From the NCBI RefSeq assembly GCF_003019035.1, contig NZ_CP027447.1: 64,000 bases of DNA. One strand, given 5' to 3'. The position numbers were made by a program, and so were the translations under genes. The notes under the pieces were generated by a model. The model saw nothing but the letters and a program-made list of their open reading frames with translations, had not been told where the DNA came from and did not search any database. Shown piece by piece: positions 45,706-56,223 of this stretch (its first letter is position 1; each line of letters starts with the position of its first letter). Origin of the DNA: Escherichia coli. Its GTDB lineage: Bacteria > Pseudomonadota > Gammaproteobacteria > Enterobacterales > Enterobacteriaceae.

Positions 45706-46563
45706 ATGAAATACATTGGAGCGCACGTTAGTGCTGCTGGCGGTCTGGCAAATGCCGCAATTCGCGCCGCCGAAATCGACGCAACCGCGTTTGCCTTGTT
45801 CACCAAAAACCAACGTCAGTGGCGTGCCGCACCGCTCACGACGCAAACCATCGATGAATTCAAAGCCGCCTGTGAAAAATATCACTACACATCGGCGCAA
45901 ATTCTTCCCCACGACAGTTATCTGATTAACCTCGGACATCCGGTCACTGAAGCTCTGGAAAAATCGCGCGATGCCTTTATAGATGAAATGCAGCGTTGCG
46001 AACAGCTGGGGCTTTCTTTGCTCAACTTCCACCCTGGCAGCCATCTGATGCAGATTTCAGAAGAGGATTGCCTTGCGCGTATTGCCGAATCCATCAACAT
46101 TGCGCTGGATAAAACTCATGGTGTGACAGCGGTGATTGAAAACACCGCCGGTCAGGGCAGTAACTTAGGGTTTAAATTCGAACATCTCGCGGCGATTATC
46201 GACGGCGTGGAAGATAAATCCCGCGTCGGCGTCTGCATTGATACCTGCCATGCTTTCGCTGCCGGGTATGATTTGCGTACTTCTGCCGAATGCGAGAAAA
46301 CGTTCGCGGATTTTGCCCGTATTGTCGGCTTTAAGTATCTGCGCGGGATGCACCTTAACGATGCGAAAAGCACCTTTGGCAGCCGCGTTGACCGCCATCA
46401 TAGCCTCGGTGAAGGCAATATCGGTCATGATGCGTTCCGCTGGATCATGCAGGACGACCGTTTCGACGGCATTCCGCTGATCCTTGAAACCATCAACCCG
46501 GATATCTGGGCAGAAGAGATCGCCTGGCTGAAAGCGCAACAAACTGAAAAAGCGGTAGCCTGA
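45706..46563 (+). CDS. nfo: Endonuclease IV (Nfo), 285 aa
   Basis: AP endonuclease family 2 TIM barrel; N-terminus [14 protein letters not shown]. Confidence 0.93.
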
Positions 46564-46565
46564 AG

Positions 46566-47654
46566 ATGAACAACCGGGAGAAGGAGATCCTTGCAATATT
46601 AAGGCGTAACCCGCTGATTCAGCAGAACGAAATTGCGGATATGCTGCAAATCAGCCGTTCGCGTGTTGCAGCGCATATTATGGATTTAATGCGCAAAGGT
46701 CGGATTAAAGGCAAAGGTTACATTCTCACCGAGCAGGAATACTGCGTAGTGGTGGGGACAATCAATATGGATATTCGCGGGATGGCGGATATCCGTTACC
46801 CGCAAGCGGCTTCTCATCCCGGTACCATTCATTGCTCGGCAGGCGGCGTTGGACGCAATATCGCCCACAATCTGGCGCTGTTAGGCCGCGACGTCCATTT
46901 GCTTTCAGTGATTGGCGATGACTTTTATGGCGAAATGCTCCTGGAAGAAACGCGCCGCGCCGGCGTGAATGTCTCCGGCTGCGTTCGTTTACATGGTCAA
47001 AGCACATCGACGTATCTGGCAATTGCCAATCGAGACGATCAAACCGTGCTGGCGATTAACGATACCCATCTGCTGGATCAGTTGACACCGCAACTACTGA
47101 ACGGGTCGCGCGATTTACTTCGTCATGCGGGCGTGGTACTGGCTGATTGCAACCTGACAGCCGAGGCGCTGGAGTGGGTCTTTACCCTCGCTGATGAAAT
47201 CCCGGTGTTTGTCGATACCGTTTCAGAATTCAAAGCGGGCAAAATCAAACACTGGCTGGCGCATATTCACACTCTGAAACCCACTTTGCCGGAGCTGGAA
47301 ATTTTATGGGGCCAGCCGATAACCCGCGATGCTGATCGTAATGCCGCAGTGAATGCGTTGCATCAGCAAGGCGTTCAGCAACTGTTTGTTTATTTGCCCG
47401 ATGAGTCTGTTTATTGCAGCCAAAAGGATGGCGAACAATTTTTGCTGACTGCGCCAGCGCATACGACGGTAGACAGTTTTGGTGCTGACGATGGTTTTAT
47501 GGCGGGCCTGGTGTATAGCTTTCTGGAAGGAAGCAGTTTCCGTGATAGTGCCCGTTTTGCGATGGCCTGCGCGGCAATTTCACGCGCCAGCGGCAGCTTA
47601 AACAACCCTACCCTGTCTGCCGATAACGCGCTTTCATTAGTGCCGATGGTGTAA
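46566..47654 (+). CDS. yeiI: PfkB-family sugar kinase with N-terminal HTH, YeiI, 362 aa
   Basis: N-terminal winged-helix then ribokinase-like fold; parallels psuK. Confidence 0.88.
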   Translation: MNNREKEILAILRRNPLIQQNEIADMLQISRSRVAAHIMDLMRKGRIKGKGYILTEQEYCVVVGTINMDIRGMADIRYPQAASHPGTIHCSAGGVGRNIAHNLALLGRDVHLLSVIGDDFYGEMLLEETRRAGVNVSGCVRLHGQSTSTYLAIANRDDQTVLAINDTHLLDQLTPQLLNGSRDLLRHAGVVLADCNLTAEALEWVFTLADEIPVFVDTVSEFKAGKIKHWLAHIHTLKPTLPELEILWGQPITRDADRNAAVNALHQQGVQQLFVYLPDESVYCSQKDGEQFLLTAPAHTTVDSFGADDGFMAGLVYSFLEGSSFRDSARFAMACAAISRASGSLNNPTLSADNALSLVPMV

Positions 47655-47662
47655 CAATCTTG

Positions 47663-47696
47663 CCGGATTCGACGCTTGACCGCGTCTTATCCGGCT
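47663..47696. repeat. REP-like palindrome between convergent yeiI and nupX
   Basis: GCCGGATTCGACGCTTGACCGCGTCTTATCCGGC, REP-like. Confidence 0.45.
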
Positions 47697-47709
47697 CATA
47701 ACTCGCGCA

Positions 47710-48960
47710 CTACGCTAAGCCAATAAAGAACCCGGCAATGGTGGCACTCATCAGGTTAGAAAGTGTCGCCGCCGCCAGCGCGCGTAAACCAAGCTGGGCG
47801 ATTTCCGGCGCGCGGTGTGGCGCAACCGCAGAAAATGCCCCCACCACCACCCCGATAGAACCAAAGTTAGCGAAACCGCACAACGCGAAGGAAATAATCG
47901 CCACGGTTTTAGCATCCAGAGTGCCAGCTGTTTGCAGATAAGGTGAGAAATTGAGGTAAGCGACAAATTCATTAATCGCCAGTTTCTGTCCAATCAAACT
48001 CCCGGCAAGATTCGCATCACTCCAGTCAACCCCCATCACCCACGCCAGTGGAGCCAACAGGTAACCTAAAATGGACTCCAGCGAGGCATGTTCAAAACCA
48101 AACCAGCCGCCAACGCCGCCGATAATACCGTTAATCAACGCAATTATTGCAACAAATGCCATCACCACTGTCGCTACACCGGCGGCGATTTTCAGCCCGG
48201 TCATTGCCCCTGTCGCAGCGGCTTCAATAATGCTTTTTGGCGGTGTTTCGGTGAAAGAGAGGTTATTAAAGGAAACCTGCGAAGATTCCGTAGCCGGACT
48301 TAACAGGCGGGCAAACAAGATCCCACCAGGGATAGCCATTAACGATGCCGCCAGCAGATATTCCACAGGCACGCCCAGTGCGGCGTAACCAATCATTGTC
48401 GAACCAGCAATCGAGGCCATCCCGCTACAAATCGCTGTAAATAATTCATTGCGATTCAGACGATCGATAAAGGGTTTGACGATTGCCGGAATTTCGTTTT
48501 GCCCGAGGAAAATGGTAGTGACCGCGACGAACGACTCGATCTTGCTGATATTTAACGCTTTCTGGAAGATACCGCCGAGAATGCGAATTAAGATCCCCAT
48601 CACACCGATGTAGTAGAGAATACTCACCAGTGCTGTAACGAAGATAATTGCCGGTAATACCCTGAAACCAAAGATAAATCCTGCACCATCAAATAAGGTG
48701 TCCATTTTCGGTCCGACCAGAGAACCGAAGATAAATGCGCTACCTGCATCGCTGTACGCCATCACTTTATGCACGCCAAAAGCGACTTTTTCTGCGACCC
48801 AACGCCCTGGCGGTAACCAAAGCATAATGCCGCCAATCACGACCTGTAACACTAACGCCGCGCCAACGGTACGCAGGCTGATCTTCTTCTTGTTTACTGA
48901 CAGCAAAAACGCAATTGCCAGCAGTACCACCATTCCCAGAACACTTCTCATGACATCCAT
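47710..48960 (-). CDS. nupX: NupC-family (CNT) nucleoside transporter NupX, 416 aa
   Basis: CNT family; close paralogue of the psuT ORF in this window. Confidence 0.88.
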   Translation of the reverse strand: MDVMRSVLGMVVLLAIAFLLSVNKKKISLRTVGAALVLQVVIGGIMLWLPPGRWVAEKVAFGVHKVMAYSDAGSAFIFGSLVGPKMDTLFDGAGFIFGFRVLPAIIFVTALVSILYYIGVMGILIRILGGIFQKALNISKIESFVAVTTIFLGQNEIPAIVKPFIDRLNRNELFTAICSGMASIAGSTMIGYAALGVPVEYLLAASLMAIPGGILFARLLSPATESSQVSFNNLSFTETPPKSIIEAAATGAMTGLKIAAGVATVVMAFVAIIALINGIIGGVGGWFGFEHASLESILGYLLAPLAWVMGVDWSDANLAGSLIGQKLAINEFVAYLNFSPYLQTAGTLDAKTVAIISFALCGFANFGSIGVVVGAFSAVAPHRAPEIAQLGLRALAAATLSNLMSATIAGFFIGLA

Positions 48961-49059
48961 AGTTATTATCTCTTCATGTCATTTTGGGCGACGGCTTTCT
49001 GCCCATCAGAAATAGCCAGGCTTGCATCTTGCGATACCGGCCCGGCTTGATATCACCAC

Positions 49060-50001
49060 TTAGTGGGTTTTGATGTAGCCGCGCACGCACTCTTCGACTA
49101 ATCCCCAGAACCAGTCGGTATCAATAGTGATGCCGACTTTGGTATTGGCGGGCTTGCCAAGAACGCCCAGCTCGTCGCAGACGGTACGCCCGTAACAAGG
49201 GCCACTGTTGACGTCCACTTCGACGTACATCTCCTGGGTTTTAATGCCATCGGGGTTAATCAGATAACCGATACAGGTGGCGTCATGTACCGGGCCGCCA
49301 GCCAGACCGTAGTTTTCGAACTGCGTTTTGAGAGTGAAGTTCATGATGTCGCTGAACAGCTCTCCGGCGGGGCCGCCTGCTCTTTCCATCCGTGCAATCA
49401 CGTCCGGAGTGCAAACGGTCTGGTTGGTGAGATCGAGGCCCATCATCACTAATGGAACGCCGGAGGTGAACACCACGCGTGCGGCTTCCGGGTCAGCAAA
49501 AATGTTGAACTCGGCAGATGGGGTGAAGTTGCCAGTACCGTAAGCGCCGCCCATCAGTACAATTTCACGGATTTTTGGCAAGATTGCGGGTTGCATACGC
49601 ATTGCCACCGCGATATTTGAAAGCGGACCAACCGGCACCAGAGTGATATCGCCATCGCTTGCCATCAGGGTATCGATGATATATTTCACCGCATGGGTGT
49701 TTTCTGCCTGACGAGTCAGCGGTTCGAATACCGGACCATCCAGCCCGGTTTCACCGTGAATATTATCGGCAACGATTTGTTGACGCATAATGGGTTGCGG
49801 CATCCCCGCATAAACCGGAACATTAATCTCCAGTTTCTGGCAAACATTCAGGCCATTAATTAATGTTTTATCGAGGGTTTGATTCCCCGCCACAATAGTG
49901 ATACCTAATAAATCAATCGCCGGATGTTTCGCTGCCATCATCATTGCAATAGCATCATCATGACCCGGATCACAATCCAGAATAATTTTTCTCTTTTCCA
50001 T
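49060..50001 (-). CDS. rihB: Pyrimidine-specific ribonucleoside hydrolase RihB, 313 aa
   Basis: Nucleoside hydrolase DxDxxxDD N-terminal motif ([15 protein letters not shown]). Confidence 0.9.
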
Positions 50002-50169
50002 TGTTTATTTCCTCTGTTTCCAGTTGCGTTATTTTTTCTACAGCAAAGAAAATTCGACCGGGCCGATGATTGAATCTTAACAACAGCGTACGTATGCTAA
50101 ATATGAGAAATCTCATAGCGGATAAATATCGTGAAAGAAATCCACAATAATGATCTTAAGCAGCAATTG

Positions 50170-50829
50170 ATGAGTGAATCCGCGTTTAAGGATTGCTTTT
50201 CAACGGATGTTTCAGCCGATACGCGGCTGTTTCATTTTTTAGCGCGTGACTACATAGTGCAGGAAGGGCAACAGCCGTCCTGGCTGTTTTACCTGACGCG
50301 AGGCCGCGCCAGGCTTTACGCCACGCTTGCTAATGGTCGCGTGTCGCTGATCGATTTCTTTGCCGCCCCCTGTTTTATTGGTGAGATTGAGTTAATCGAT
50401 AAAGACCATGAACCGCGTGCGGTACAGGCTATTGAAGAGTGTTGGTGCCTTGCGCTCCCTATGAAACATTACCGCCCGCTGTTATTAAACGACACGCTAT
50501 TTTTACGAAAACTCTGCGTTACTTTAAGCCATAAAAATTATCGCAATATTGTTTCTTTAACTCAGAATCAATCATTTCCGTTAGTGAATCGCCTGGCAGC
50601 ATTTATATTACTCTCACAAGAAGGTGATCTTTATCACGAAAAGCATACGCAAGCGGCAGAGTATTTAGGCGTTTCTTATCGACATCTTTTATATGTTCTC
50701 GCGCAATTCATTCACGACGGTTTATTAATTAAAAGCAAGAAAGGATATCTAATTAAAAACAGAAAGCAGTTGTCAGGACTGGCGCTGGAGATGGACCCGG
50801 AGAATAAATTCTCCGGGATGATGCAGTAA
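50170..50829 (+). CDS. yeiL: CRP/FNR-family regulator YeiL, 219 aa
   Basis: cNMP-binding-like domain and C-terminal HTH; ORF-track start 50131 is a GTG, trimmed to ATG ([10 protein letters not shown]). Confidence 0.8.
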
Positions 50830-50852
50830 AAAATAATCTGCAATAGCGCGAT

Positions 50853-50888
50853 TGCCGGATGCAACGCTTAATAAGGCGTACATCCGGC
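50853..50888. repeat. REP-like palindrome between convergent yeiL and psuT
   Basis: GCCGGATGCAACGCTTAATAAGGCGTACATCCGGC, REP-like. Confidence 0.45.
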
Positions 50889-50896
50889 AATGAAAC

Positions 50897-52147
50897 TCAA
50901 GCTAAACCAATAAAGAACCCGGCAATGGTCGCGCTCATCAGGTTGGAAAGCGTTGCTGCTGCCAGCGCCCGTAAACCAAGCTGAGCGATTTCCGGTGCGC
51001 GTTTTGGCGAAATAGCCGAAAATGCCCCAACGACAACACCGATAGAACCAAAGTTAGCAAAACCACAAAGCGCAAAGGAGATAATCGCAATGGTTTTCAC
51101 TTCCAGTGTACCACCCGTTTGCAGATACGGAGAGAAACTCAGGTAAGCGACAAATTCGTTTATCGCCAGTTTCTGCCCAATCAGGCTACCGGCAAGGTTA
51201 GCATCGCTCCAGTCTACTCCCATGATCCACGCCAGTGGCGCCAGCACATAGCCAAAAATACTTTCCAGAGAAGCATTGGCGAAACCAAACCAGCCGCCAA
51301 TTCCGCCGATAATGCCGTTGATCAGCGCAATAATTGCAACAAACGCCATTACCACCGTCGCTACACCAGCGGCGATTTTCAGCCCGGTCATTGCACCGCT
51401 CGCCGCCGCTTCGATAAAGCTTTTTGGCGGCGTTTCGCTGAACGACAGGTTTTCAAATGTCACCTGTGAAGGCTCGGTTGCTGGGCTAAGAATACGCGCA
51501 AACAAAATACCGCCGGGGATAGCCATCAGCGATGCCGCTAACAGGTAGTCAATCGGCACGCCCATTCCGGCATAACCAATCATCATCGAACCGGCAATGG
51601 ACGCCATCCCGCTACAAATTGCGGTAAACAACTCGTTGCGATTCATGCGATCGATAAACGGTTTTACGATCGCCGGGATCTCGTTTTGCCCGAGGAAAAT
51701 AGTAGTGACTGCAACAAAAGACTCGATTTTGCTGATGTTAAGGGCTTTCTGAAAAATGCTGCCAAGAATACGAATCAGCAGCCCCATCACGCCAATGTAG
51801 TACAGCAGACTGATGAGCGCAGTAACGAAGATAATCGCCGGAAGTACGCGAAAGGCGAAGATAAAACCCGCACCGTCAAACAAGACATCCATTTTCGGCC
51901 CAACCAGCGAACCAAAAATGAAGGCGCTACCGGCATCACTGTAAGACATCACTTTATGAACGCCTAATGCCGCCTGTTCTACTGCCCATTTTCCCGGTGG
52001 GAAGTAGAGCATGATGCCACCAATAGCAATTTGCAGCAGCAGCGCGGCTCCAACCGTGCGCAAACTGATGCTCTTTTTATTCACTGACAACAGAAATGCT
52101 ATTGCCAGTAACACCACCATCCCCACAACACTTCTCATTATATCCAT
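50897..52147 (-). CDS. psuT: NupC-family nucleoside (putative pseudouridine) transporter PsuT (YeiM), 416 aa
   Basis: CNT family, paralogue of nupX; operon with psuG and psuK. Confidence 0.88.
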   Translation of the reverse strand: MDIMRSVVGMVVLLAIAFLLSVNKKSISLRTVGAALLLQIAIGGIMLYFPPGKWAVEQAALGVHKVMSYSDAGSAFIFGSLVGPKMDVLFDGAGFIFAFRVLPAIIFVTALISLLYYIGVMGLLIRILGSIFQKALNISKIESFVAVTTIFLGQNEIPAIVKPFIDRMNRNELFTAICSGMASIAGSMMIGYAGMGVPIDYLLAASLMAIPGGILFARILSPATEPSQVTFENLSFSETPPKSFIEAAASGAMTGLKIAAGVATVVMAFVAIIALINGIIGGIGGWFGFANASLESIFGYVLAPLAWIMGVDWSDANLAGSLIGQKLAINEFVAYLSFSPYLQTGGTLEVKTIAIISFALCGFANFGSIGVVVGAFSAISPKRAPEIAQLGLRALAAATLSNLMSATIAGFFIGLA

Positions 52148-52240
52148 AATGATTTTCCCTTCATGCCAGTAAACCCGGCGTCAGCGCCAGGTTTTGGTAT
52201 GTATGATCAGTACGGGCGACGGCTTTCTGCCCGCCAGAAA

Positions 52241-53179
52241 TTAACCCGCGAGACGCTGGTATTCTTTGGCAATTTCGCTCGCCAGAATGGCGTTGTTGAA
52301 CACCAGTTGGATGTTGGATTTCAGGCTGTCACCGCCAGTCAGTTCAGCAACACGAGCCAGCAGGAACGGTGTGCTTTCTTTACCAATAACGCCCTGCTCT
52401 TCGGCTTCGGCGACGGCTTGATCTATGGCTGCATTGATAGATTCCTCCGGCATCGCAAACTGCTCCGGGATCGGATTCGCCACTACCAGGCCGCCGTTCA
52501 AACCGGTTTGCCATTTCACTGCCATTGCACGAGCGATTTCCGTGGCACTATCAAGGCGAATGCTGACGTCAAACGGGCTGGTACGGCAGAAAAACGCAGG
52601 CAGCGCTTTTGTCTGATAGCCAATTAACGGCACACCGAAGGTTTCTAAATATTCTGTTGTTAATCCTAAATCGAGAATAGATTTTGCACCGGCACAAACA
52701 ACGGTGACATTAGTATTTGCCAGTTCTTGCAAATCGGCAGAAATATCGAAGGTATGTTCCGCCCCGCGATGCACACCACCAATTCCCCCGGTGGCAAATA
52801 CTTTAATTCCGGCAAGCGCCGCAATAATCATCGTTGAAGCCACAGTGGTTGCGCCATTTTTTCCGGCGGCAACGACAAAAGGTAAATCGCGACGACTAAC
52901 TTTGGTCACGTTATGCCCTTCGCGACCCAGCAATTCAATTTCTTCTTTGCTTAAACCCACTTTCATCACGCCGCCAATAATGGCGATAGTGGCAGGTACA
53001 GCGCCCTGTTTACGAATAGTTCCTTCAACTTCAATTGCGGTCTGGGCATTTTGTGGGAACGGCATCCCGTGAGAAATAATGGTCGATTCCAGCGCCACAA
53101 CCGGTTTTTTGTTTTTTAAAGCGTCCTGCACTTCCGGGGAAATTTGTAATAATTCAGGGGAAATTTTTAATTCAGACAT
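52241..53179 (-). CDS. psuG: Pseudouridine-5'-phosphate glycosidase PsuG (YeiN), 312 aa
   Basis: Indigoidine synthase A-like family; overlaps psuK by 13 nt. Confidence 0.9.
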   Translation of the reverse strand: MSELKISPELLQISPEVQDALKNKKPVVALESTIISHGMPFPQNAQTAIEVEGTIRKQGAVPATIAIIGGVMKVGLSKEEIELLGREGHNVTKVSRRDLPFVVAAGKNGATTVASTMIIAALAGIKVFATGGIGGVHRGAEHTFDISADLQELANTNVTVVCAGAKSILDLGLTTEYLETFGVPLIGYQTKALPAFFCRTSPFDVSIRLDSATEIARAMAVKWQTGLNGGLVVANPIPEQFAMPEESINAAIDQAVAEAEEQGVIGKESTPFLLARVAELTGGDSLKSNIQLVFNNAILASEIAKEYQRLAG

Positions 53180-54108
53180 TCTGCGTTCTCCACTAACGAT
53201 ATAACGTTGGCAATCGATAAATCGGGGTTATTGGTGTATTCACAGGAGAGCGCCATTGACGAACATCCCTGTGCGAAACGAACAGATTCGGCAAACGGCA
53301 TTCCGTCTACCCAACACGAAGCAAGTCCCGCCATCATGGCATCACCCGCTCCGGTAACATTAATGACATTGGTTTTGATCGGCGCAGACCAGCCACTTTC
53401 ACCGCTGATATCGCTGTAATAAACGCCATCGCCGCCCATGCTCAATACCAGTCGGTTCAGGCCATGTTGATGGAACCAGGCAGCAACTTTTGCCACATCT
53501 TCACGCCCTGACAGCGCAATCCCACTCAGGGTTTCCGCTTCAAGGCGGTTTGGCTTGAGAGTGTGGATTTGATTTAGACGGTCGCGCACTTTGACACATT
53601 TCCACGCAGAAACCGGATCGACAAATACGGGTACGTTGGCGGCATTATCCAGAATCCATGCCAGTGCCTCTTCACTGATATTACAGTCCGCGACAATGAC
53701 CTTTGCCCTCTGAATAAATTCACGATGCTGTGCGAGATATTCAGCTGTAATAGCGTTGCTAATATTCATGTCATTTATAGCAACCAGCATTTCACCGGTA
53801 TTATCGAGTAATGATAAATAGCTCGACGTATTTTCTCCCGGCACAATCAGGCATTTATCGACATAAACACCAGATTGATTGGTTTGCGTTAGCAACGATT
53901 GACCATAAAAATCACTGCCTACTGCGCTCAGTAGCCAGGCTTTATTCCCCAGCAACGCCAGGTTTTGTGCAATATTGCGCCCTACTCCACCAGGCGTAAA
54001 CTTTATTTTACCTGGATTTGAATCCGCATAATTTAATGATTCATGTGAATATCCGGCGACATCAATATTCGCCGAACCTATAATTACGACATAATCCTTT
54101 TCGCGCAT
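53167..54108 (-). CDS. psuK: Pseudouridine kinase PsuK (YeiC), PfkB family, 313 aa
   Basis: Ribokinase-like fold with GAGD motif (VTGAGDAMMAG). Confidence 0.9.
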   Translation of the reverse strand: MREKDYVVIIGSANIDVAGYSHESLNYADSNPGKIKFTPGGVGRNIAQNLALLGNKAWLLSAVGSDFYGQSLLTQTNQSGVYVDKCLIVPGENTSSYLSLLDNTGEMLVAINDMNISNAITAEYLAQHREFIQRAKVIVADCNISEEALAWILDNAANVPVFVDPVSAWKCVKVRDRLNQIHTLKPNRLEAETLSGIALSGREDVAKVAAWFHQHGLNRLVLSMGGDGVYYSDISGESGWSAPIKTNVINVTGAGDAMMAGLASCWVDGMPFAESVRFAQGCSSMALSCEYTNNPDLSIANVISLVENAECLN

Positions 54109-54175
54109 AGCACGTCCTCTGGTAAAAAATTACCAACCCTGTCAATCCACAAGAATATAGATACTGCAAAGACGG

Positions 54176-54211
54176 TTTAAACATGTGTTCATATTTAAAC
54201 ATGTGCTCATA
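54176..54211. repeat. Perfectly abutting tandem direct repeat, 2 x 18 bp (TTTAAACATGTG[T/C]TCATA), in the psuK promoter region
   Basis: Seen in sequence about 68-103 bp upstream of the psuK start codon; each unit contains an ACATGT palindrome. Confidence 0.45.
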
Positions 54212-54344
54212 GTATGCATGTTTTACGTAAAGTAAATTACCGCCAGAGAGGCAAAATGGGCAGATTTGAGCAGGCTCACAAAACGCGATTAAATGCCTGA
54301 ATTATAAAAACGGGGAATTTGTGACGGGAGGCACAGAACAGGAA

Positions 54345-54378
54345 CAATAAAAAAGGGCAGAAAATAATCTGCCCTTGA
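54345..54378 (-). terminator. Rho-independent terminator downstream of fruA (end of fruBKA operon)
   Basis: Hairpin AAGGGCAG-8nt-CTGCCCTT followed on the minus strand by UUUUUUAUU. Confidence 0.6.
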
Positions 54379-54531
54379 GGAAATAACCTTAGTGTTTGAT
54401 GAACATTTCAGGTTTCTACTGAAAGATAAAACCATTTAAATTCATAAAATTACATTCACAAACTGGTCATTCCCTTTGCGCGCATCAAATGTTACAGGGC
54501 AGGAAATTTCTGCCCTGGAACACACCTTTTA

Positions 54532-56223
54532 TTACGCTGCTTTTGCTACTGCGTCCACTTCCGGACGTTTCAGGAAGGCATAGGCCAGACCCGCCACCAG
54601 CGTACCGGCAATAATGGCTACCAGGTAACCCAATACCGGCGTAATCGCGCCAGGGATCAGCAGAACAAACAGACCACCGTGCGGTGCCATCAGTTTCGCA
54701 CCAATCGCCATTGAGATTGCGCCAGTCAGCGCCCCACCCACGATACAGCACGGCAGCACACGCATCGGATCACGGGCAGCAAACGGAATTGCACCTTCCG
54801 AAATAAAGCACAGTCCCAGTACCAGAGCAGCTTTGCCCCCTTCCTGCTGCGCCTTGTCGAATTTGCGACGCGCTACCATTGTTGCCAGCCCCATTGCCAG
54901 CGGTGGCACCATACCTGCCGCCATAATCGCCGCCATCGGGCCATAGGTTTGAGTACTCAGCAGACCCACACCGAACGCGTACGCTGCTTTGTTTACCGGA
55001 CCGCCCATGTCAGTACACATCATGCCACCGAGGATCGCCCCCAGCAGAACCGCATTCGCAGTCCCCATGGTCTGCAGCCAGTGAGTCAACCCTTCGAGAA
55101 TGCCAGCAACCGGTTTACCGATCAGGTAGATCATCGCCAGACCGACCACCAGACTGGAAATTAGCGGAATGATCAGAATCGGTTTCAGCGCCTCCATACT
55201 CTGTGGCAGTTTCAATTGCGTACTGATTAACTTCGCAATGTAACCAGCCAGGAAGCCCGCAATAATACCGCCAATGAAGCCAGAACCGGTGCTGACCGCC
55301 AGCATACCGCCAATCAGACCCGGCGTGAGACCCGGACGATCGGCAATGGAAAAGGCAATATAACCTGCCAGTACCGGCACCATCAACGCAAAGGCTGAAC
55401 CACCACCAATCTGCATCAGCGCCGCAGCCAACGTACCCGGCTCTTTAAACGCTTCGATACCAAAAGCAAAAGAAAGCGCGATACACAGACCACCTGCAAC
55501 GACCATCGGCAGCATGTAAGAGACGCCCGTCAGCAAGTGACGGTAAGCGCCTGCACTCTCTTTCTTACCTTCAGTGGTCGCTGTTTGAGCTTTGCCCGCT
55601 GGTTCATACGGCGTTGCTTCAGCAACCGCTTTATCCAGTTCCTGCGCAGTTTTCTTCAGCGCCAGACCGGTAGAGGTGCGATACATCGGTTTACCAGCAA
55701 ATTTCGCCAGATCCACTTCGATATCTGCCGCCACAATCACCAGATCCGCTGCGGCGACTTCTTCAGGGGTGATTGCATTACCCGCGCCAACAGAACCACG
55801 GGTTTCAACTTTCACCCACCAGCCACGTTTTTTCGCTTCGGTTTCAATGGCTTCAGCCGCCATAAAGGTGTGTGCTACGCCAGTCGGGCAAGCAGTCACC
55901 GCAACTACGCGTTTCGGACCGCTGGCGGCAACCGGTGCTGTCGCAGCGACCGGCGCAGTGTAAGGTTTCGCATGGCCTTTGGCTTCACTCAGGAACAGCT
56001 CAGGGTGCGCAACTGCCCGGGAAATATCGCCCAGCCAGACATTTTTACCGTTCAGCGCGCTGTCATTCGGGATGGAATCACCGAGAACAATCGCCATTTC
56101 TGCGTCGTTCGGATTGTCGATGATTTCCAGTTTTGCTTTTCGCGCCGCCGCGCCCAGCAGGGTCTTCGCCATATAGGCGCGTGCCTGACCGAGATTAGCG
56201 TCAATAATCAGCAGCGTTTTCAT
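54532..56223 (-). CDS. fruA: PTS fructose-specific EIIB'BC component FruA, 563 aa
   Basis: Duplicated IIB domains and IIC membrane domain; operon fruBKA. Confidence 0.93.
   Translation of the reverse strand: MKTLLIIDANLGQARAYMAKTLLGAAARKAKLEIIDNPNDAEMAIVLGDSIPNDSALNGKNVWLGDISRAVAHPELFLSEAKGHAKPYTAPVAATAPVAASGPKRVVAVTACPTGVAHTFMAAEAIETEAKKRGWWVKVETRGSVGAGNAITPEEVAAADLVIVAADIEVDLAKFAGKPMYRTSTGLALKKTAQELDKAVAEATPYEPAGKAQTATTEGKKESAGAYRHLLTGVSYMLPMVVAGGLCIALSFAFGIEAFKEPGTLAAALMQIGGGSAFALMVPVLAGYIAFSIADRPGLTPGLIGGMLAVSTGSGFIGGIIAGFLAGYIAKLISTQLKLPQSMEALKPILIIPLISSLVVGLAMIYLIGKPVAGILEGLTHWLQTMGTANAVLLGAILGGMMCTDMGGPVNKAAYAFGVGLLSTQTYGPMAAIMAAGMVPPLAMGLATMVARRKFDKAQQEGGKAALVLGLCFISEGAIPFAARDPMRVLPCCIVGGALTGAISMAIGAKLMAPHGGLFVLLIPGAITPVLGYLVAIIAGTLVAGLAYAFLKRPEVDAVAKAA

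Follow-up and report, generated by a model that had tools for sequence, protein, structure and literature searches.

Introduction

The REP hairpins of malE-malF are intercistronic stem-loops that set differential expression within operons, and G+C-rich hairpins past stop codons, whether REP or other intercistronic hairpins, are common stabilisers; the ompA leader stem-loop is 5'-terminal and protective. Lambda boxB, the BglG-type RAT sites and the ribosomal-protein operator hairpins are leader hairpins that serve in recognition by proteins. Riboswitches can be very small, as preQ1-I and guanidine-II (mini-ykkC) demonstrate.

The DNA analysed here, a 64,000-nt stretch of Escherichia coli to which we refer as the window, contains two nucleoside-catabolic operons, rihB-nupX and psuK-psuG-psuT, in each of which the final gene encodes a transporter (Table 1). 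The psu operon allows E. coli to grow on pseudouridine, and its promoter region is repeatedly hit by adaptive mutations during colonisation of the mouse gut (PMC7518454). NupX is a weak uridine/cytidine transporter, while the function of PsuT has been inferred solely from its operon (PMC11241209). A first-pass annotation of this DNA proposed that the two transporter genes share a leader block that may be a regulatory site. In our view the block is probably a small, structured mRNA hairpin that acts in cis within the operon messages, as part of the transporter leader. This hairpin, designated hairpin 1, is apparently an undescribed element of a modest, regulatory type, a small addition to the structured leader elements of the best-studied bacterium.

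Results and Discussion

A non-coding block shared by two old paralogues

Both transporters belong to the CNT/NupC family. Precomputed domain assignments for proteins 99% identical to the query place PF01773 (Nucleos_tra2_N), PF07670 (Gate) and PF07662 (Nucleos_tra2_C) across a protein of about 400-420 aa, and RefSeq labels the two genes alike, as NupC/NupG-family CNT transporters. The gap-free alignment of the two genes gives identities of 88.5% for amino acids and 79.6% for nucleotides, against 48% (92/191) at four-fold degenerate sites; the paralogy is old, and neutral sites are saturated.

Table 1. Genes and leader hairpins of the two operons, in positions of the window
Feature	Positions	Strand	Description	Basis
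nupX	47710..48960	(-)	CDS, 416 codons, CNT/NupC-family nucleoside transporter	ORF list, RefSeq annotation of identical strain SCU-301, Pfam
psuT	50897..52147	(-)	CDS, 416 codons, CNT/NupC-family transporter	ORF list, RefSeq annotation (SCU-301)
rihB	49060..50001	(-)	pyrimidine ribonucleoside hydrolase, upstream of nupX on the same strand	ORF list, RefSeq annotation (SCU-301)
psuG	52241..53179	(-)	pseudouridine-5'-phosphate glycosidase, upstream of psuT on the same strand	ORF list, RefSeq annotation (SCU-301)
nupX hairpin 1	48985..49005	(-)	U-GGGC-A-G-AAAGCCGU-C-GCCC-A	exact motif match, covariation, covariance model (44.1 bits, E = 1.7e-10)
psuT hairpin 1	52212..52234	(-)	GC-GGGC-A-G-AAAGCCGU-C-GCCC-GU	motif match, MFE, covariation, covariance model (44.7 bits, E = 1.1e-10)
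nupX long hairpin	49014..49047	(-)	AGCCGGGC...GCCUGGCU, directly past the rihB stop	centroid fold of the 123-nt leader, leader comparison
psuT hairpin 2	52171..52194	(-)	AAACCUGGCG-CUGA-CGCCGGGUUU	alignment gap, fold, consensus structure
psuT hairpin 3	52135..52152	(-)	UCAUUAU-GGAU-AUAAUGA, enclosing the AUG start codon	RNAalifold consensus

Within the 64-kb window, the 19-mer GGGCGACGGCTTTCTGCCC (on the coding (-) strand, GGGCAGAAAGCCGUCGCCC) occurs exactly twice, at 48986-49004 and 52214-52232, and it still has just these two matches when up to three mismatches are permitted, with 0.02 expected by chance. This core ends 25 nt upstream of the nupX ATG and 66 nt upstream of the psuT ATG. The extended block GGGCGACGGCTTTCTGCCCnnCAGAAAT (48986-49013 and 52214-52241) is identical at 26 of its 28 bases; in the psuT copy, the final T is where the psuG stop codon begins on the opposite strand. 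The first-pass annotation had located the block at 48976-49003 and 52206-52235; the block is real, with positions shifted by about 10 nt. The extra stretch of about 45 nt that it described between the block and the psuT ATG is also real, and measures 41-42 nt in the pairwise alignment. The CAGAAAT portion of the block as first drawn is Escherichia-specific, and wider conservation is limited to the 19-21 nt hairpin. Because the paralogues are old, with only 48% identity at four-fold sites, the non-coding 19/19 match is not neutral (p ~1e-6 per position under neutrality).

Conservation across genera

Metagenomes were sampled independently of the motif by means of a coding-start pattern, which retrieved 32 loci. 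The element is at the same place in all 31 loci whose upstream region is complete, and the remaining locus breaks off within it. A hairpin is likewise at this place in 11/11 further representatives, although the remaining intergenic region is unalignable; these were fetched as proteins with the source names Buttiauxella, Leclercia, Enterobacter hormaechei, Entomohabitans, Kluyvera, Klebsiella spallanzanii, Salmonella, Enterobacteriaceae bacterium H11S18, Dryocola, K. michiganensis and Enterobacter sp. FS01. In the sampled relatives, the element is invariably preceded by an enzyme gene (psuG or rihB) and followed by the transporter gene. The earlier proposal that the similarity of the paralogues reaches into the leader is borne out, since the 19/19 match is far above the neutral expectation and is conserved across genera, and on the same grounds the inference of a functional element shared by both transporter genes is sound.

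The same data bear on the suggestion that the block has no function and is a relic of duplication, identical in E. coli by chance or through a short gene-conversion tract. The two E. coli copies do agree at the four variable loop positions (AAA and C), where the orthologues of other genera differ, and mosaic patches show past exchange between the paralogues. However, every relative sampled, from many genera, keeps the block amid scrambled intergenic sequence, the changes that do occur are compensatory or wobble, and neutral paralogue sites are saturated. We regard this reading as highly improbable, and the cross-genus conservation brings it close to refuted.

A coding role, as a sense-strand leader peptide or as an antisense 24-codon ORF at 48977-49051, is hardly credible. 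E. coli nupX does have an ATG-initiated antisense ORF of that length across the motif, in whose frame the variable positions of the motif are codon third positions, but in that genome the matching frame of the psuT copy lacks a start. Among relatives, none of the six frames holds a conserved ORF across the element: each is interrupted by a stop within the motif or lacks an upstream start in several of them, which refutes a small ORF or leader peptide.

Structure of hairpin 1

Hairpin 1 has a 5-pair G+C-rich stem (N-GGGC / GCCC-N'), at times 1-2 pairs longer, topped by a bulged A, one G-C pair and an 8-nt apical loop with almost no variation at G10, C11, G13 and U14. In nupX a U-A pair (49005/48985) closes the 19-nt core. 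The psuT hairpin has an MFE structure of -11.4 kcal/mol, and folding of each full leader is more favourable than that of its shuffles (z = -3.2 and -2.6); in the E. coli nupX leader alone, a competing pairing UUCUG/CAGAA is predicted against hairpin 1. The two apical pairs examined are not supported, as 16-22 is pairable in 22/33 sequences and 17-21 in 14/33. Hairpin 1 is short, and a DNA palindrome whose two halves change together could look like a covarying stem.

Among 33 distinct sequences, the closing pair is C-G in 23, U-A in 7, U·G in 2 and another combination in 1; the next pair is G-C in 31 and A-U in 2; and the inner pair is G-C in 27, A-U in 2, G·U in 1 and other in 3. Five of the eight pairs change on both sides. 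The covariation score of 0.24, in which identical inherited changes are counted repeatedly and about two to four lineages are independent, is reached by 0/500 shuffles and falls to 0.03-0.15 when the 3' partner is slid. Pairs are therefore kept by compensatory and wobble changes, as in structured cis-acting RNAs generally, through few independent events. The six core pairs comprise 188 Watson-Crick cells, 6 G·U and 0 A·C, and six G·U against zero A·C points to sense-strand RNA. Comparison of these sequences shows that the hairpin exists with the pairing described, is under purifying selection and is strand-asymmetric. In nupX of Leclercia and E. hormaechei, extended pairing takes the place of the conserved loop, which speaks for structure alone and tells against a partner of strict sequence specificity.

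These features are pertinent to the view of the element as a double-stranded DNA site where a transcription factor would regulate the two transporter genes, whether the site is a roadblock or the operator of an internal promoter. Candidate factors are the neighbouring YeiI (HTH_24 plus PfkB kinase) and YeiL (CRP/FNR family), or a global regulator. Such a site agrees with the shared regulatory site first proposed; its two outer 5-bp arms make up a perfect inverted repeat (CGGGC...GCCCG), and HTH-containing YeiI homologues or YeiL are encoded beside many of the loci. However, neither gene is present at all of them: yeiI is absent at the locus in Salmonella, Buttiauxella and Leclercia L117, and yeiL in Citrobacter and E. 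albertii. The conserved interior (AG...GC.GUC) is asymmetric, and the six wobble-type departures are all sense-strand G·U. The distance from the element to the start codon also varies, from 25 to about 70 nt across leaders, and neither 48961-49059 nor 52148-52240 contains a sigma-70-like promoter (-35 and -10 hexamers 16-18 nt apart). Downstream of the nupX element no promoter fits, because just 25 nt remain to the ATG. The supplement of PMC7815308 lists no transcription starts in either intergenic region, although, with these operons poorly expressed in the laboratory, missing ends carry little weight. A DNA operator is, on balance, rather improbable. The element part of the first-pass proposal holds; in nature it is more likely a structured RNA in the transcript than a CytR, NagC or CRP site, because the interior is not dyad-symmetric, the stem covaries and the six non-Watson-Crick combinations that can still pair are all sense-strand G·U.

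Hairpin 1 in the context of its leaders

In psuT, the extended stem of hairpin 1 starts 6 nt past the psuG stop codon (52241-52243), and psuT-type leaders in general start the hairpin 6-12 nt past it. This placement, together with the common stabiliser role of G+C-rich post-stop hairpins, would suit a 3'-end element of the upstream gene that shields the psuKG or rihB segments from 3' exonucleases, or weakly terminates, and is unrelated to the transporter. Like an intrinsic (Rho-independent) terminator, hairpin 1 of psuT is a G+C-rich stem-loop right past a stop codon. Unlike one, it has no U-tract on either strand, and it is not reported by a scan that requires at least 5 U in 8 starting 0-2 nt past a G+C-rich stem-loop; the tails are AAAAUGAC (nupX) and GUACUGAU (psuT). 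Moreover, nupX-type leaders already have a separate post-rihB hairpin, with the motif 30-60 nt further on; in E. coli this is the long nupX hairpin, whose sequence is not conserved yet which has counterparts at the same place in the nupX-type leaders of other genera. Hairpin 1 goes with the transporter gene whichever of two unrelated genes precedes it, and an exonuclease barrier does not need conserved loop bases. A role confined to the upstream gene is therefore improbable.

The 41-42-nt segment that is extra in the psuT leader corresponds to hairpin 2, which nupX-type leaders lack. Hairpin 2 adds to the strand evidence, with a U·G pair confined to the sense strand in 13/14 sequences of the consensus structure. 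It is terminator-like, with an upstream A-tract and a downstream UUU, yet only UUUAC follows the stem and it too fails the terminator scan. Hairpin 3 keeps 7/7 pairs in 14 sequences, and since it is almost invariant it exhibits no covariation.

The presence of hairpin 2 downstream in psuT-type leaders would be in keeping with a small riboswitch, in which hairpin 1, perhaps with flanking bases, binds pseudouridine, uridine, uracil or a ribose phosphate and tunes transporter expression. Hairpin 1 resembles preQ1-I and guanidine-II in its similar size, its conserved loop and its association with transporter genes, which is strict for those of the two nucleoside-catabolic operons, and the precedent of such very small riboswitches favours the idea. 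It differs from them in that inspection of the leaders found neither a conserved pseudoknot or second hairpin partner nor a conserved pairing alternative that involves hairpin 2 or the RBS; conservation is limited to about 21-25 nt, nupX-type leaders are without hairpin 2, and the loop is replaced in one lineage. With Rfam 15, cmscan of 46000-55000 gave no match over either motif or hairpin 2, even at E <= 10; its sole hits were weak, REP-related naRNA4 matches in the 3' flanks. We judge a riboswitch very unlikely.

Comparison with described hairpins and a possible role

Similar to stem-loops of the REP and ompA type, hairpin 1 is G+C-rich, lies between cistrons of a polycistronic message without a promoter or U-tract, and is at a variable distance from the next start codon; the psuT copy is flanked by an A/U-rich single-stranded stretch. 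It differs from REP hairpins in having conserved unpaired bases and orthologous conservation across genera at one specific gene. It is also not repeated genomically: by BLAST, for which a bare 19-mer copy is below sensitivity, the leader with the motif has a median of two and a maximum of three places per E. coli genome, whereas REP/BIME membership requires many dispersed copies. As with boxB, RAT and ribosomal-protein operators, a short stem carries a loop or bulge with conserved bases, and in psuT it stands upstream of a terminator-like hairpin. Unlike these sites, it has no sequence resemblance to them, no cognate RNA-binding protein gene in the neighbourhood and no Rfam match, and, in contrast to a RAT that overlaps its terminator, it does not overlap hairpin 2.

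We infer that hairpin 1 is co-transcribed and acts on the mRNA. It would be transcribed within the polycistronic rihB-nupX and psuK-psuG-psuT messages as part of the 5' leader of the transporter cistron, and has travelled with the PsuT/NupX transporter clade (proteins at least 80% identical, Enterobacteriaceae) whichever enzyme gene is upstream. Its action would most likely be post-transcriptional, adjusting transporter levels against those of the upstream enzymes; because the distance to the start codon varies so widely, the hairpin is unlikely to occlude the ribosome-binding site directly. The probable route would be either recognition by a trans-acting factor (protein, RNase or RNA) or a determinant of processing or stability of the transporter segment. 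Taken separately, factor recognition is a tentative possibility, a passive processing or stability hairpin is doubtful, and other RNA-level roles are quite improbable. It is unlikely that hairpin 1 is the core of a new regulatory RNA class specific to the Enterobacteriaceae PsuT/NupX clade, a sensor hairpin bound either by a small molecule of pyrimidine-nucleoside or pseudouridine catabolism or by a dedicated RNA-binding regulator. If this reading were true, transporter synthesis would be gated independently of the upstream catabolic enzymes, in psuT jointly with hairpin 2; if hairpin 1 is merely a stability hairpin, the finding is ordinary. A covarying hairpin before both transporter genes offers a mutable handle on post-transcriptional control of nucleoside uptake.

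Recombination between the paralogues

The two genes had also been viewed as potential substrates for a recombination that would delete rihB-yeiL. This expectation is not borne out: at 80% nucleotide identity the longest exact runs in the coding sequences are 26, 23 and 20 nt, and the predicted deletion is essentially absent, with 5,418 of the 5,426 complete genomes of E. coli retaining rihB-yeiL. The one large deletion inspected is IS5-mediated, and the common structural variant is loss of nupX itself (about 977 records). The psuT gene of E. albertii has a nupX-type stop codon and 3' flank as well as an internal nupX-like patch, an old mosaicism which shows that exchange between the paralogues happened on an evolutionary time scale. 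REP-like sequences, seen as weak Rfam naRNA4 matches, lie in the 3' flanks of both genes, at 47651-47696 and 50822-50889.

The Leader Block Shared by nupX and psuT

The nupX and psuT genes both comprise 416 codons and align without gaps, with 88.5% identity at the amino-acid level and 79.6% at the nucleotide level. Identity falls to 55% at third codon positions and to 48% at four-fold degenerate sites, which makes the paralogues old, with their neutral sites saturated. As the table of coordinates shows, an exact 19-mer, GGGCGACGGCTTTCTGCCC, precedes each gene; the shared block reads GGGCAGAAAGCCGUCGCCC on the coding strand. The 19-mer has two copies in 64 kb, even with ≤3 mismatches, where 0.02 are expected by chance, and if neutral sites are 0.48 identical, the probability of agreement at 19/19 bases is ~1e-6 per position. 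In the nupX copy, 25 nt separate the block end from the ATG within a rihB-nupX spacer of 99 nt. In the psuT copy, the 19-nt core begins 8 nt past the psuG stop and leaves 66 nt to the ATG, within a spacer of 93 nt. The first-pass annotation had reported such a block, and its presence is confirmed at positions ~10 nt away from those it gave. The insertion of ~45 nt that it described in the psuT leader is likewise real, measures 41–42 nt by pairwise alignment, and forms a discrete hairpin, AAACCUGGCG-CUGA-CGCCGGGUUU (hairpin 2).

Coordinates of genes, leader elements and comparison loci (window positions unless a locus handle, denoting a fetched comparison locus with its own numbering, is given)
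Feature	Position	Strand	Remark
yeiI	46566-47654	+	
nupX	47710-48960	-	distal gene of rihB-nupX
rihB	49060-50001	-	
yeiL	50131-50829	+	
psuT	50897-52147	-	distal gene of psuK-psuG-psuT
psuG	52241-53179	-	
psuK	53167-54108	-	
19-mer (hairpin 1), nupX copy	48986-49004	-	
19-mer (hairpin 1), psuT copy	52214-52232	-	
Hairpin 2	52171-52194		psuT leader
AUG-enclosing hairpin	52135-52152		psuT leader
UUUCUG/CAGAAA pairing	48978-49012	-	E. coli only
Hairpin after rihB	49014-49047		
24-codon ORF	48977-49051	+	antisense, rejected
REP-like palindromes	47651-47696; 50822-50889		3' flanks of nupX and psuT
psuK-fruA spacer	54109-54500		
Terminator-like hairpin	54376-54353	-	
Promoter-like site	54181-54154	-	upstream of psuK
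nupX remnant, APEC O1	L003 2658-2723		corresponds to window 47710-48894
psuT, E. albertii	L008 2203-3513		compared with window 47650-48960 and 50837-52147
Deletion, TUM2820	L127 2346-4253		IS5-family element
rihB-linked loci with hairpin 2	L086 1038-1378; L121 2360-2501		K. spallanzanii-like lineage
YeiI homologues	L119 3823-4923; L120 3778-4872; L125 3799-4881; L126 3792-4868		with window yeiI

Conservation of the Element in Relatives

Scanning genomes with NupX as the protein query returned eight close loci, whose neighbours were assigned by tblastn of E. coli proteins. Two modules were seen: psuK-psuG-motif-transporter beside yeiI and nfo (E. albertii, three Citrobacter, Leclercia), and yeiL <-> rihB-motif-transporter (Superficieibacter). 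Metagenomes were then searched blind to the motif, with a pattern drawn only from the first 30 coding bases, in a variant excluding Escherichia. Among the 32 loci recovered, which split by neighbour genes into psuG-linked and rihB-linked types, the element occupies the same place in all 31 that have a complete upstream region; the 32nd ends inside the element. Eleven more proteins were examined by exact sequence (Buttiauxella, Leclercia, Enterobacter hormaechei, Entomohabitans, Kluyvera, Klebsiella spallanzanii, Salmonella, Enterobacteriaceae bacterium H11S18, Dryocola, K. michiganensis and Enterobacter sp. FS01), and a hairpin lies at the motif place in 11/11, with the remaining spacer often unalignable. 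Hairpin 1 is the sole universal leader feature, at 25 to ~70 nt from the AUG. Set beside its persistence at these loci, a functionless relic is very improbable.

A covariance model (R1) built from the first 28 sequences recovers both window copies at 44.7 and 44.1 bits. In a search of 75 sources (733 kb), 71 of them around more distant NupC homologues (≤72% identity), R1 found no other convincing copy in the window or beside those 71 homologues, and its best match outside the family scored 17.7 bits (E = 0.04). With the 136-nt nupX leader as the query, a median of two places per E. coli genome was found, with a maximum of three.

Structure and Covariation of Hairpin 1

Structure was scored over 33 distinct sequences. 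Hairpin 1 has an N-GGGC/GCCC-N' stem, a near-constant A after the 5' arm, a G-C pair (19-mer positions 6-15) and, at the apex, a segment of eight nt, N N N G C N G U, with G10 in 31/33, C11 in 29/33, G13 in 32/33 and U14 in 33/33.

Pair composition of hairpin 1 in 33 distinct sequences
Pair	Counts
Closing pair	C-G 23, U-A 7, U·G 2, U·U 1
First G-C pair	G-C 31, A-U 2
Third G-C pair	G-C 32, G·U 1
C-G pair	C-G 31, U·G 2
Inner pair	G-C 27, A-U 2, G·U 1, other 3
Optional outer pair	A-U 13, G-C 6, G·U 3, other 11

The covariation score is 0.240 against a shuffled mean of 0.159, and none of 500 shuffles scored as high, though the changes go back to no more than a few lineages. When the 3' partner is shifted by 1-3 columns, pairing drops from 86% to 32-50%. 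Even between the E. coli copies there is a compensatory difference at the closing pair, U-A in nupX vs C-G in psuT, and the U·G intermediate is found in APEC O1 and in E. albertii psuT. An extension of the apical helix (pairs 16-22 and 17-21) was tested across the sequences and is unsupported. In the Leclercia / E. hormaechei nupX lineage, extended pairing takes the place of the loop, GACGGG(C/U)(G/A)AUCCCGG(G/A)UUGCCCGUC.

The six core pairs hold 188 Watson-Crick cells, 6 G·U and 0 A·C. This is the pattern expected if the sense strand folds as RNA, and not of an antisense RNA or a DNA duplex. An exact 19-nt match in front of two transporter genes could also be imagined as a DNA operator, a reading that we regard as unlikely in light of this asymmetry. 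A sigma-54 site was considered in the psuT copy (TGGC-N9-AGC) and discarded, as its GG is GA in K-12 psuT and in nupX. The earlier suggestion of a shared regulatory element is reasonable once it is recast as an RNA hairpin.

In E. coli only, UUUCUG of the 5' flank can pair with CAGAAA of the hairpin, which explains the CAGAAAT tail of the block as first described; this competing structure is predicted at -9.8 kcal/mol in a 41-nt nupX context.

Interpretation and Alternatives

Hairpin 1 accompanies the transporter gene whether psuG or rihB, which are unrelated, stands upstream. This tracking, the inferred place inside the message, the sense-strand pairing and the conserved unpaired bases together suggest that hairpin 1 is probably a cis-acting mRNA hairpin of the transporter leader, acting after transcription. 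Candidate roles are recognition by a factor, favoured by the conserved loop, and a structural one (processing or stability, for example), favoured by the varying distance to the AUG and by the single lineage in which the loop has closed up.

Given how closely the psuT copy follows the psuG stop, the hairpin might instead be a 3'-end element of the upstream gene. A terminator scan made no call in either intergenic spacer, did not score hairpin 1 as a terminator, and no U-tract follows hairpin 1 on either strand; with the element accompanying the transporter rather than either neighbour, this alternative also appears improbable. A small riboswitch would accommodate the conserved apical bases, and an Rfam scan of 9 kb (E ≤ 10) gave no match at the motif; we consider this reading distinctly doubtful. 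Candidate pseudoknots or anti-terminators, in which the loop or 3' arm pairs with downstream GAC/AUCAGAC, hairpin 2 or the SD, were rejected, none being conserved across the leaders compared.

A coding role was prompted by an antisense frame (A-T-A-x-C) that places the variable positions at wobble sites. Tempting as it was, this frame was rejected for non-conservation, and no small ORF across the motif keeps a conserved frame among all six. An antisense 24-codon ORF with an ATG start (MSFWATAFCPSEIARLASCDTGPA) occurs in E. coli only, and not in psuT or other genera. We give coding almost no credence.

A scan for sigma-70-like promoters found none in either intergenic spacer. No transcription starts or 3' ends are tabulated in either spacer (PMC7815308 supplement), which is weak evidence because the operons are weakly expressed. 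The same supplement lists an antisense start within nupX and a minus-strand start annotated as antisense to yeiL, the latter estimated to lie close to the psuT 3' end.

No description of the element was found in the searchable literature on psuT/nupX/yei genes or in structured-RNA surveys, and it appears to be so far undescribed. We know of no convincing likeness to boxB, ops, RAT, the T-arm, the D-arm, the 16S 530 loop or CRISPR repeats. The element is of a familiar sort, a structured leader or intercistronic hairpin, and its importance is modest, barring discovery of a specific ligand or partner.

Other Features of the Leaders

The psuT-type leaders carry hairpin 2, with nine to eleven pairs and a sense-only U·G in 13/14 sequences, and a hairpin enclosing the AUG, UCAUUAU-GGAU-AUAAUGA. 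Both are near-invariant, so that covariation is no test of either. Hairpin 2 is missing from most nupX-type leaders, several of which read AUCAGA-CCUGGCAU where the psuT-type counterpart is AUCAGACAUACCAAAA-CCUGGCG...GGGUUUC-CUGGCAU; we infer that this difference is of the kind expected had the DNA between the CCUGGC direct repeats, of which there are two, been deleted. Hairpin 2 is retained by the rihB-linked transporter of a K. spallanzanii-like lineage, and in the metagenome locus L086 ~340 nt of unassigned sequence part it from rihB. What nupX-type leaders have instead is a separate hairpin immediately after rihB, of non-conserved sequence.

Recombination and Structural Variation

The proposal that nupX and psuT recombine to delete rihB-yeiL is not borne out by the genomes of today: among 5,426 complete E. 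coli genomes, 5,418 have rihB-yeiL. The paralogues today share 80% identity with a longest identical run of 26 nt, and on these sequences are poor recombination substrates. In the one large deletion inspected (TUM2820), an IS5-family (ISKpn26-like) element stands in place of nfo'-yeiI-nupX-rihB-'yeiL; the psuG of TUM2820 has an internal stop. A common variant, in ~977 records of E. coli that make up the 80-90% identity class, APEC O1 among them, has lost nupX save its first 22 codons. In these records rihB survives, and so does the leader hairpin, in which a single variable loop position is changed.

Exchange between nupX and psuT did occur over evolutionary time. In a neighbour-joining tree the psuG-linked transporters form one clade and the rihB-linked transporters are paraphyletic. 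The psuT gene of E. albertii resembles psuT as far as nucleotide 1242, then has a nupX-type stop codon and 3' flank (TAGTGCGCGA...), and seven informative sites in a row inside it are of the nupX type. This mosaic indicates that the paralogues recombined or underwent gene conversion long ago, and it puts a junction at the ORF 3' end.

Gene Order and Flanking Features

The window is E. coli DNA and, over 4.7 kb, matches strain SCU-301 at 100% identity. The segment 47600-52300 is unusually polymorphic within E. coli, with ≥99% identity over 4.7 kb in 1/5,430 records, and YeiI and PsuK differ by 12-14% at the protein level between the window strain and APEC O1. The two modules are arranged differently between fruA and nfo from genus to genus (loci L119, L120, L116, L117, L118 and L122). 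The double-module order of E. coli is found also in Kluyvera and Entomohabitans; Salmonella, Buttiauxella and one Leclercia have yeiL-rihB-nupX only, and E. hormaechei has rihB-nupX followed directly by psuK-psuG-psuT.

In many genera the yeiI homologues are convergent to the transporter gene. Their products combine an N-terminal HTH_24 with a PfkB kinase domain, the latter ~39% identical to PsuK, and YeiI is a candidate for a kinase-type regulator acting on the locus. The REP-like palindromes in the 3' flanks of nupX and psuT are weak naRNA4 matches (21-23 bits), and these flanks have ...AAGCGTYGMATCCGGCAA in common. The psuK-fruA spacer contains a strong terminator-like hairpin, presumably the fruA terminator, and the orphan start tabulated on the minus strand at K-12 coordinate 2259533 (PMC7815308 supplement) is estimated to fall inside this spacer, where gut-adaptive mutations are reported to recur (PMC7518454).
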